Source: Candidatus Hermodarchaeota archaeon | GTDB lineage: Archaea; Asgardarchaeota; Thorarchaeia; Thorarchaeales; Thorarchaeaceae | DNA: 25,904 nucleotides | Direction of reading: 5' to 3' | NCBI GenBank assembly: GCA_048885865.1 | Contig: JBHLLF010000036.1 | Location: 1-25,904 of the forward strand | In this document: piece after piece, positions 12,608 through 14,765 of the stretch | Layout: each line of letters starts with the position of its first letter | How positions within the stretch are numbered: the first letter of the stretch is position 1 | Position numbers and translations under genes: made by a program | Notes under the pieces: model-generated | The model's input: the letters and a program-made list of their open reading frames with translations, nothing else | Database searches by the model: none | What the model was told of the DNA's origin: nothing

Positions 12608-13132
12608 ATGAGGTCTGTGTTCATTGGACGCTTTCAACCGGTCCATAAGGGCCATGTCCATACTGTAAAGCAGATACTTGAGAAGGGAGAAGACCTAATC
12701 ATTGTGATTGGGAGTGCTCAGTACTCACACACACCCAATAACCCATTCACGGGTGGAGAGAGAGTGATGTTCATGAAACAGGCCCTCATAGAGGAGGGCC
12801 TTCCCCTCGATCGAATTGACATTGTTCCCCTTGCTGACATCAACATCCACCCTCTCTGGGTAGCACATCTCAAGAGTTTCGTCCCATACTTCGATAAGGC
12901 TTACACCCACAATCCACTGGTGGCCAGACTTCTGAAGGATACTGGTATTGACGTGGATGAAACAGAGCTTCTTGAGCGAAATACCTACAGTGCGAAACAC
13001 ATACGGGACCTTATCCGATGGAACAATCCCGAATGGGAAACCCTTGTACCTCCAGCCGTTGCCAATCTGATTAAGGAGCACAAGATGGACGAGCGAATAC
13101 GTGAAATTGGTGAGGTCACTACAAAGCGCTGA
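12608..13132 (+). CDS. nadM: Nicotinamide-nucleotide adenylyltransferase (archaeal NMNAT)
   Basis: GRFQP.HKGH, IGSAQ.SHT..NPFT.GER, WVAH, W..LVP. Confidence 0.93.
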   Translation: MRSVFIGRFQPVHKGHVHTVKQILEKGEDLIIVIGSAQYSHTPNNPFTGGERVMFMKQALIEEGLPLDRIDIVPLADINIHPLWVAHLKSFVPYFDKAYTHNPLVARLLKDTGIDVDETELLERNTYSAKHIRDLIRWNNPEWETLVPPAVANLIKEHKMDERIREIGEVTTKR

Positions 13133-13146
13133 CTCACACAGCAGAC

Positions 13147-13154
13147 TTTAAATA
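13147..13154 (+). promoter_or_regulatory. Archaeal TATA box for proS
   Basis: TTTAAATA just downstream of the nadM stop; predicts a transcription start near 13175-13180, giving a ~105-nt 5' leader. Confidence 0.6.
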
Positions 13155-13171
13155 CGGACCCAAGGTGACTC

Positions 13172-13272
13172 TCTGTTGGTGAACGTTTATGCTAGGTGAA
13201 CGCGTTCCGAACCAATAGAATGCTGATTCTCTGTCCTAGCCATTGCTCCGTAAACCAATCAGATCACAGGAG
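13172..13272 (+). ncRNA. Candidate structured proS 5' leader with a kink-turn hairpin
   Basis: 9-bp stem 13172-13180/13211-13219; tandem G.A/A.G pairs (13181-82/13209-10); 3-nt bulge TCC; ACG/CGT stem. An alternative fold is possible (see findings). Confidence 0.5.
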
Positions 13273-13280
13273 TAGATACA

Positions 13281-14765
13281 ATGAGTAGTAATGACGAGAA
13301 CAAAGAATCGAAGCAAGCGATCTTCAATATAAGCAAGGAAGAGAACTTTCCTGACTGGTTTGGCGAGATATGCAAAGTTGCCGACCTCGCTGACATCCGA
13401 TATGGCGTCAAAGGCTTCACTCCATTTCCTCCTTGGAGCTACATGACCATGGACATCATGTTTGACTTCTATGAGGCAGCCCTAAAACGTAAGCGTCATC
13501 TACCTATGCTATTCCCGACTGTGATTCCTGAGAGTAACCTCACAAAGGAGGCTGAACATGTAGAGGGCTTTACACCTGCAGTGTTCTGGATTAGGGAGAT
13601 TGGCGATGGCGAAGAACTTGAGGAAAGACTGGCCCTTAGGCCCACTAGTGAAACCGCGATCTATCCAATGTACTCACTCTGGATACGAAGTTGGCGTGAC
13701 ATGCCTCTAAAGAGGTACCAGCGATGTTCGGTGTTTCGGTCAGAGATAAAGAGCACACGTCCTTTCCTTCGAGGTCGCGAGTTCTTGTGGATTGAGAGCC
13801 ACAATGTATTTGCCACACATGAAGAGGTTATTGCACAGGTGATGGAGGACATTGAAACGACCAAGGAAGTTGTCACAGATGATTATGGACTGCCAATAAT
13901 GGTGTTCAAACGTACACAGTGGGACAAGTTTCCGGGTGGACTGAACACATATGCGGCAGACACACTCATGCCTGATGGAAAGGTCATCCAGTTGCCATCC
14001 ACACATGACCTAGGTGATAACTTTGCAAGAGCTTTCGACATCAAGTACTTGAACGAGAACAATGAAACAGTCTATGCATGGCAGACATGCTATGGTCCTG
14101 CCGTTTCCAGGATGTTTGGCGCCCTGATATCAGTTCACGGTGATGACAAAGGACTACGCCTACCATTCAAACTGGCTCCTTACCAGGTTGTCATCATTCC
14201 TATCATCAAGGGGAAGAATGCAGATGCAATTCTTGAGTACTGCAAGAAGATTGAGCAGACTCTCGAAAAGGCTGGAATCAGGGTCCATTTGGATGACTGT
14301 GATGCTACCCCTGGTTGGAAATATAACTACTGGGAGATGAAAGGGGTTCCCATCCGGATTGAAGCCGGACCAAAAGACATCAAGAAGGACCAAGTGGTTG
14401 TGTTTCGCAGGGATCTGATGAAACGTGAATCTGTGGCTTTGAAAGGCCTCAAGAAACACGTCAATACTTTGGGTAAAGACATTGACAAGACTCTGAGGGC
14501 ACAAGCCGAAGCCAAGTTTGATGGTCTCGTAGTGGATGCTGATACAATCGGTCAGATTGATGATGCCATGAACAATGGCAAGATTGCCCGAATTCCATTC
14601 TGTACCACTGAGATGGAAGGCTTGAGCTGTGATGAAGAGATCAAAGACAGGACTGGTGGCGAAATCCGCGGGACAAGGATAGACATCGAGGAAAAGGCAG
14701 AAGGAGTCTGTGTCATCTGCGGAAAGGTCGCCCAAGAAGTCGTCTACGTCGCCCGATCCTACTAA
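13281..14765 (+). CDS. proS: Proline--tRNA ligase (archaeal/eukaryotic type)
   Basis: KEAEHVEGF.P, LALRPTSETAIY, FLRGREFLW.E.H, QTCYG...R, HGDDKGLRLP, WEMKGVPIRIE.GP.D, C-terminal Zn-site cysteines and terminal ARSY. AGGAG RBS at 13268-13272. Confidence 0.97.
   Translation: MSSNDENKESKQAIFNISKEENFPDWFGEICKVADLADIRYGVKGFTPFPPWSYMTMDIMFDFYEAALKRKRHLPMLFPTVIPESNLTKEAEHVEGFTPAVFWIREIGDGEELEERLALRPTSETAIYPMYSLWIRSWRDMPLKRYQRCSVFRSEIKSTRPFLRGREFLWIESHNVFATHEEVIAQVMEDIETTKEVVTDDYGLPIMVFKRTQWDKFPGGLNTYAADTLMPDGKVIQLPSTHDLGDNFARAFDIKYLNENNETVYAWQTCYGPAVSRMFGALISVHGDDKGLRLPFKLAPYQVVIIPIIKGKNADAILEYCKKIEQTLEKAGIRVHLDDCDATPGWKYNYWEMKGVPIRIEAGPKDIKKDQVVVFRRDLMKRESVALKGLKKHVNTLGKDIDKTLRAQAEAKFDGLVVDADTIGQIDDAMNNGKIARIPFCTTEMEGLSCDEEIKDRTGGEIRGTRIDIEEKAEGVCVICGKVAQEVVYVARSY

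Follow-up and report, generated by a model that had tools for sequence, protein, structure and literature searches.

A conserved proline-codon upstream open reading frame as a candidate sensor of prolyl-tRNA supply in the proS leader of Thorarchaeota

The T-box of Gram-positive synthetase genes reads the tRNA directly by RNA–RNA contacts, and no ribosome takes part in the reading. Among the operons with bacterial attenuators, pheST is a synthetase operon. A lone sensor codon is unusual among leader peptides. To our knowledge, archaea offer hardly any documented case of regulatory programmed frameshifting. A search of the literature on archaeal leader peptides, upstream open reading frames (uORFs), frameshifting, and synthetase regulation found no description of a system like the one presented here, in line with the statement of a sequence-only reading of the same DNA that it knew of no archaeal aminoacyl-tRNA-synthetase leader of such a type. 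The prfB gene is autoregulated by +1 programmed frameshifting, and its site comprises a Shine-Dalgarno (SD)-like element, a shift-prone P-site codon, and a slow A-site codon (PMC5009743). Frameshifting at hungry codons is also a known phenomenon (PMC5009743). In translational attenuation of the ermC type, as summarized in PMC10219788, a ribosome stalled on a uORF alters access to the downstream start. In Sulfolobus and Archaeoglobus, the protein L7Ae regulates mRNAs via kink-turns (K-turns) in the 5′-UTR, and the G·A pairs are the defining feature of the K-turn and are essential for L7Ae binding (PMC5539422, PMC6298567).

The window analyzed here is the whole stretch of 25,904 nucleotides of contig JBHLLF010000036.1 from a Candidatus Hermodarchaeota archaeon. 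Its proS gene is preceded by a leader that is flanked on the other side by a nucleotidyltransferase gene of the NMN-adenylyltransferase type (12608–13132). The conserved element of this leader is probably a translational sensor of Pro-tRNA-Pro supply, to judge from a comparison of related genomes, and not the K-turn that had been proposed from the single sequence. The uORF in the leader has a conserved start, frame, stop, and Pro codon, a +1 reading frame with a conserved end point is kept open across the leader, and the whole is linked to proS in single copy. The coordinates are collected in Table 1.

Table 1. Features of the proS leader and its surroundings (positions of the window; all on the + strand).
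Feature	Position	Strand	Remarks
TATA box of the proS promoter	13147–13154	+	Invariant or nearly so in 74/74 leaders
Hairpin of the sequence-only reading	13172–13219	+	Apparent lineage-specific complementarity; 3′ strand corresponds to uORF codons 8–9 and stop
Predicted transcription start G13178 and SD-like pentamer for the uORF	13178–13182	+	TATA spacing; 16S complementarity
Possible RNA hairpin	13179–13208	+	13179 and 13181–85 with 13203–08, enclosing the uORF start
Putative sensor uORF, 9 codons and stop (MLGERVPNQ*)	13189–13218	+	Conserved start, frame, stop, and Pro codon
Internal SD-like hexamer in the uORF	13194–13199	+	Contains GUG 13196–98, the first +1-frame codon after the stop 13193–95
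Proposed shift site	13204–13210	+	GUU (P site), CCG Pro codon (A site), then A
+1 reading frame across the leader	13208–13288	+	Ends at UAG 13286–88, just past the proS AUG
Second conserved block	13223–13242	+	Nearly invariant; +1 frame reads L-I-L-C-P-S-H; 13235–40 complementary to 13191–96
SD sequence of proS	13268–13272	+	AGGAG, 8 nt upstream of AUG 13281
proS, archaeal/eukaryotic-type prolyl-tRNA synthetase (ProRS)	13281–14765	+	Pfam tRNA-synt_2b, HGTP_anticodon, ProRS-C_1

The window contains no Rfam match at the gathering score, and a search at E ≤ 10 gives two chance-level matches only. ARAGORN finds no tRNA in the window, and neither a terminator-like site nor a U-tract is present on the + strand of the proS leader. 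A purine-rich equivalent of the proS SD sequence occurs in every leader compared. In the window's genome, the genes for tRNA-Pro(CGG), tRNA-Pro(UGG), and tRNA-Val(GAC) are all present. ARAGORN detects the two tRNA-Pro genes only in its intron mode, with a length of ~110 nt and a DNA-encoded CCA end, and without this mode it finds only 19 tRNAs in this genome.

The comparison set began with the ProRS loci of 40 related genomes, from whose conserved leader a covariance model was built. A search with this model finds the motif in single copy in the window's genome, and likewise as one copy in each of 74 among the 86 genomes of the family, covering 15 of 16 genera, with no credible match in 125 other genomes of the phylum. 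All 74 copies precede proS, at 31–39 nt from its start as measured from the model end, and they are 74 different sequences. A pattern scan of a genome collection gave mostly chance matches; the 16 real ones all belong to Candidatus Thorarchaeota or Promethearchaeota MAGs. A similar scan of metagenomes gave chance matches only, among the matches listed. The leaders of other class II synthetase genes contain nothing that resembles the proS leader. In what follows, the uORF counts rest on 74 leaders and the +1-frame stop counts on 70.

The TATA-like box noticed in the single sequence is confirmed at its position. The distance from this box to a conserved GG is always 22–23 nt in the 74 leaders, the spacer being variable in sequence and constant in length. 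In archaeal promoters, initiation takes place ~23 bp after the TATA box (PMC4247193). Because the spacing matches this distance, G13178 is the predicted +1 position, and conservation begins exactly there. A GAC at 13167–13169 is conserved in most of the 74 promoters, about 9–11 nt before the predicted start, and is possibly a promoter-proximal element. The SD-like pentamer at the predicted 5′ end lies 6 nt before AUG 13189, and 5–8 nt before the start in relatives. It is complementary to UCACC of the 16S rRNA 3′ tail, the tail having been taken from relatives, namely one congeneric genome and one of another genus. The 16S rRNA genes of two relatives (L345, 3109–3140; L344, about 1490–1530) contain inserted hairpin-like segments near the 3′ end, before the anti-SD tail, and the Rfam 16S model ends short of these segments.

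The uORF begins with AUG (67) or GUG (6) in 73 of the 74 leaders and has a frame of 8–12 codons with the pattern M-L-G-(E/D/G)-x-V-P-(1–5 residues)-stop. The two most divergent leaders have a 3-nt insertion in the uORF, which is in frame. Codon 4 varies in its third base only, except for GGU (Gly) in two leaders, and codons 2, 3, and 6 are without synonymous variation. The Pro codon (13207–09) is CCG or CCA in 74/74 leaders, and in all 74 the frame closes 2–6 codons past it. The stop at 13216–18, UAG in the window, interchanges among UAG, UAA, and UGA at the same site within the window's genus. The codon before the Pro codon is GUU in 73 of 74 leaders. The internal SD-like hexamer is invariant at synonymous sites, is complementary to the 16S tail, and is separated from the GUU codon by a constant 4 nt, which themselves vary in sequence. 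This hexamer may act as a frameshift stimulator or may provide a start codon.

In 67/70 leaders, the +1 frame runs without a stop from the Pro codon as far as the proS AUG. The other two frames are stop-free in 0/70 and 8/70, with means of 2.7 and 1.8 stops, respectively. In 45 of the 70 leaders, the +1-frame stop and the proS AUG share an AUGA, and the remaining stops lie at +5, +8, or +11 within proS, or rarely a few nucleotides upstream. Modulo 3, the spacing between the Pro codon and the proS AUG falls into only two of the three classes, and the +1 frame is therefore never the proS frame (0/70). Of the three frames, the +1 frame has the lowest pN/pS in 5/5 groups of equal length, with values of 0.63–0.80. 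As these values are only moderately below 1, selection would act mainly on the openness and the end point of the frame, as for a regulatory ORF. In the +1 frame, the codons of the second conserved block are hydrophobic, with synonymous Leu changes (CUC, CUA, CUU, and UUA) and an alternation of AGC and AGU. An AUG at 13220, in the +1 frame and one base past the uORF stop, is found in part of the genus only and is not conserved elsewhere.

These patterns suggest a transcription start, the translation of the uORF, a frameshift, and a direction of regulation, which could be combined as follows. Transcription would begin at about 13178, and ribosomes would bind the 5′-terminal SD-like pentamer and translate the 9-codon uORF, in which the single Pro codon is the one conserved sense codon whose identity has a clear meaning. 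When Pro-tRNA-Pro is plentiful, the Pro codon would be decoded and the ribosome would terminate at 13216–18, 62 nt upstream of proS. When it is scarce, the ribosome would wait with GUU in the P site and the Pro codon unoccupied in the A site, and the most likely outcome of this wait would be a +1 slip on GUU_C. The shifted ribosome would then read the stop-free +1 frame across the leader and terminate on or just after the proS AUG. The leader would thereby be opened, and termination-reinitiation would bring the ribosome to the proS start. More ProRS would be made when its product is short, and the arrangement would therefore be a homeostatic feedback. A point that weighs against the proposed slip is that the re-pairing of tRNA-Val(GAC) from GUU to UUC gives 2 of 3 pairs, with a mismatch in the first position. 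The lone sensor codon, the pN/pS values only moderately under 1, and the lack of a conserved helix over the proS SD also count against the proposal.

Leaders of other synthetase genes in the window's genome have comparable uORFs. The genes for IleRS, LeuRS, and PheRS-alpha, identified by NCBIfam, are each preceded by a uORF that begins M-D-C and has the cognate Ile, Leu, or Phe as its fifth codon. The IleRS uORF, MDCQIH* (contig C39, minus strand), lies ~123 nt before the gene start, and its +1 frame is stop-free to −8. The LeuRS uORF, MDCVLEY* (contig C4, minus strand), lies 108 nt before the gene start; GUU_C precedes the Leu sensor codon, and the +1 frame runs to an AUGA overlap with the gene start. 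This uORF is kept in 19 relatives of the family (L356–L375), with the +1 frame open in 17; the end of that frame lies at the AUGA overlap or slightly inside LeuRS. The PheRS-alpha uORF, MDCFF... (contig C2, minus strand), has 28 codons, and its own frame reaches an AUGA overlap with no shift. A second short uORF upstream of PheRS-alpha, MYRQFTSL*, contains one Phe codon. No SD-like stimulator was seen in the IleRS and LeuRS leaders. In the ThrRS and ValRS leaders of the same genome, a cognate sensor was looked for and none was found. The ThrRS leader has a uORF, MILRQA* (contig C11), which is without a Thr codon and has a +1 frame open to 5 nt before the AUG. As the PheRS leader involves no shift, and the ThrRS and ValRS leaders have no sensor, a single uniform mechanism is not established.

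Beyond the family, a relative at the order level (L377) has a LeuRS leader peptide, MRNCVLLLLFL*, with five Leu codons, 98 nt before the gene start, and a +1 frame that ends 5 nt into LeuRS. This five-Leu peptide looks like a classical attenuator peptide. The covariance model missed a homologous Pro uORF in another Asgard family (f12), in a genome (L025) with a ProRS of only 53% identity, where the uORF lies 132 nt upstream of the ProRS gene. It shows a synonymous change of the Leu codon and has UUU_CCC at the site, where a move from UUU to UUC means full re-pairing in the +1 frame. That frame ends 5 nt before the main AUG. It can be tentatively proposed, with a confidence that falls a little short of even, that ribosome-based sensing of tRNA charging controls the Pro, Leu, Ile, and perhaps Phe synthetases in Thorarchaeota and in at least one further Asgard family, by a +1 shift at the one cognate hungry codon of a uORF and subsequent termination-reinitiation.

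The strongest alternative comprises two independent, overlapping uORFs and no frameshift, a short one from AUG 13189 and a long one from GUG 13196 that is coupled to proS. The choice of start, perhaps made through the hairpin 13179–13208, would set the expression, and the Pro codon would be a by-product of the overlap. GUG 13196–98 is indeed invariant and directly follows the +1-frame stop, the overlapping frames account for most of the invariant synonymous sites, and the PheRS leader gets to its main AUG without a shift. Against this, the sole SD-like element stands 13 nt from GUG 13196 and at the usual 6 nt from AUG 13189, so that it is at the right distance for the AUG only, which favors the +1 shift. 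The conservation of the uORF stop is a second difficulty; the zero-frame stop is under selection, as expected for a shift, and two independent uORFs give no reason for it, nor for the cognate codons in four synthetase leaders. In some LeuRS leaders the +1 frame stays open although it contains no start codon, and independent initiation is therefore disfavored as a general route. The shift is favored further by the placement of the SD-like hexamer at a fixed 4 nt before GUU behind a variable spacer, as in prfB, and by the fact that the proS product makes the substrate that decodes the A-site codon. Two independent uORFs are thus an unlikely explanation that nonetheless deserves consideration beside the preferred sensor with a +1 shift.

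Another explanation leaves the leader untranslated. The RNA would fold into a pseudoknot, with helices 13179–85/13203–08 and 13191–96/13235–40, which would bind a ligand or a protein such as ProRS, and the ORFs would be coincidental. RNAalifold, applied to 70 leaders that start at the GG, predicts exactly the helix of 13179 and 13181–85 with 13203–08. This helix is paired in 97% of cells, its changes are mostly wobble-compatible, and two double changes from G-C to A-U occur, so the hairpin 13179–13208 has moderate support. The second helix, 13191–96 with 13235–40, consists of 6 bp, is paired in 98% of cells, and shows changes of the G-U type only. The absence of synonymous variation in uORF codons 2, 3, and 6 also fits a structured RNA. 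In contrast, true covariation is almost absent, and the second helix loses its pairing in three leaders, which belong to two lineages and have an identical change in each of its strands. A conserved helix that masks the proS SD was looked for, and the anti-SD/SD pairing is not significant (p = 0.10). The two pairings are treated as unproven, since the overlapping frames explain most of the invariance, the three leaders break the second helix, and no helix that masks the SD is conserved. A pseudoknot also leaves unexplained the AUG/GUG start, the in-frame insertion, and the interchange of stop codons, as well as the stop-free +1 frame that ends on the proS AUG and the cognate codons before other synthetases, and it finds no counterpart in Rfam. 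This explanation is improbable, distinctly more so than that of two independent uORFs.

Some other readings of the same letters were considered and rejected. A T-box-like pairing, of 13205–10 with the anticodon loop of tRNA-Pro(CGG) and of the pentamers with the acceptor end, explains the letters less well than the coding frames do, and the nucleotide that precedes the GG lacks conservation. For mimicry of the tRNA-Pro anticodon arm or D-loop, by which ProRS would be bound, there are no hairpins in support. Duplicated modules with switch-like folds are impossible as pairings, because a gap of only 2 nt separates the second heptamer from the partner it would need; the heptamer duplication is better read as the SD plus codons 3–4.

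For the predicted start of the proS transcript, the sequence-only reading had proposed a hairpin with a K-turn, bound by L7Ae and controlling ProRS translation. Its letters and coordinates are correct: 13172–80 pairs with 13211–19 in 9 bp that include one G-U, GA 13181–82 is opposite GA 13209–10, ACG 13183–85 is opposite CGT 13203–05, and 13206–08 forms the bulge. The K-turn layout, comprising the C-stem, the 3-nt bulge, the tandem G·A, and the NC-stem, can be drawn, but in the window's genome and its closest relatives only. Of 200 shuffles, 199 are less stable than the isolated hairpin, taken as a 56-nt piece (z = −3.3). The minimum-energy fold of this piece pairs 13181–86 with 13202–07 and leaves a CGA bulge, and this fold is not a K-turn, because Watson-Crick and wobble pairs replace the sheared G·A pairs; this alternative is also the one that is conserved. 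The folding of the whole intergenic region is no better than that of shuffles (z = 0.05).

That reading had named the conservation of the tandem GA and the stems in relatives as its own check and their loss as a reason to abandon the K-turn. Run on the 74 leaders, the check finds the conservation absent. The proposed structure is paired in 66.6% of cells, as compared to 65.7% in shuffled data; for its outer 4 bp the figure is 42%, and its apical stem is mostly unpaired. The stem, including the NC-stem, is lost even among members of the same genus. An alignment-free comparison of the 5′ flank with its own 3′ flank and with the flanks of other genomes gives duplex energies of −5.15 versus −5.00 kcal/mol (p = 0.25). 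Positions 13209–10 are GA, GC, GU, AU, AC, or GG across the 74 leaders, 13209 being G or A and 13210 any base, and A13182 is replaced by G in three leaders. This variability of the second GA follows from the codon that 13208–10 forms in the +1 frame, which is CGN or CAY with all four bases in the third position. The bulge 13206–08 is 100% invariant, contrary to what is expected of a K-turn loop. As read in the uORF, the bulge and the GA comprise the final base of the Val codon, the whole Pro codon, and the first base of the codon that follows.

The position of the hairpin is also unfavorable. Conservation starts at the predicted G13178. Of the 9 nt in the 5′ strand of the hairpin, 6 lie upstream of this predicted start and would be untranscribed, so that only 3 nt would be left; the element also lies ~60 nt from the ribosome-binding site of proS. 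The notion of a cis-regulatory leader that controls ProRS holds to the extent that a conserved leader exists, and the element appears to be a translated uORF with an open +1 frame in place of a protein-binding kink. Because the G·A pairs are critical for binding in K-turns and are not conserved here, control by an L7Ae-bound K-turn is very improbable, even with the precedent of the known archaeal examples. The comparison indicates a lineage-specific chance complementarity within a leader that is read as translated. An operator at the DNA level, in which the repeated heptamers and two CTAG hexamers bind a transcription factor just past the start site, is the least probable of all, for although the conserved blocks lie at +1 to +64 and CTAG changes to CCAG in both hexamers together in two lineages, the 10-bp palindrome at 13198–13207 is not conserved in its left half, the substitutions are strand-asymmetric and wobble-compatible, and the codon-phase signals have no explanation in DNA.

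If the preferred sensor with a +1 shift is correct, it would be the archaeal analog, at the level of translation, of both the bacterial T-box and prfB autoregulation. A ribosome-read charging state of tRNA that is turned into translational coupling would add a third solution to a problem that is universal, beside the T-boxes and attenuators of bacteria and the GCN2-type control of eukaryotes, in a host lineage that comprises the archaea closest to eukaryotes. A direct reporter test of the proposal is possible, as the amino-acid specificity should depend on a single codon. For annotation, conserved leaders of this kind, which look non-coding, are easily mistaken for structured RNAs, as happened here.

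When compared to the known systems, the proS leader resembles the L7Ae-bound 5′-UTR K-turns of Sulfolobus and Archaeoglobus in that it is an archaeal 5′ leader in which, in this one genome, a K-turn layout can be drawn. It differs in the lack of conserved G·A pairs and helices, in its distance from the proS ribosome-binding site, and in its apparent reading as codons. It differs from ermC in that no conserved helix masks the proS SD, and the stall signal would be the tRNA supply and not a drug. With the T-box it would share an increase in synthetase expression when the cognate tRNA is uncharged, and a leader codon that acts as the specificity determinant, whereas T-box features and a corresponding Rfam match are absent from the proS leader. 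Bacterial attenuators of amino-acid operons and of pheST (pheM) likewise have a short leader with cognate codons and sense charged tRNA via the speed of the ribosome. In contrast to these attenuators, the proS leader has no terminator/antiterminator pair or U-tract, contains one sensor codon in place of a run, and apparently gives a translational output via a second frame.

The closest likeness of design is to prfB: a short zero-frame ORF, an A-site decoding that would depend on the gene's own product, and a homeostatic logic. A conserved +1 frame is found in the proS leader too, together with possible counterparts of the shift-prone P-site codon and of the SD-like element a few nucleotides upstream. 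The slow codon of proS would be a sense (hungry) codon, whereas that of prfB is a stop, and the proS output would be termination-reinitiation and not a fused product as in prfB, since the +1 frame is not the proS frame in any leader. The hosts also differ, as prfB encodes the bacterial release factor 2, while the proS case is archaeal and known from sequence alone. The proS leader, as a wholly computational proposal, would be a new form that combines leader-peptide sensing with prfB-like autoregulation, both of which are of known kinds.
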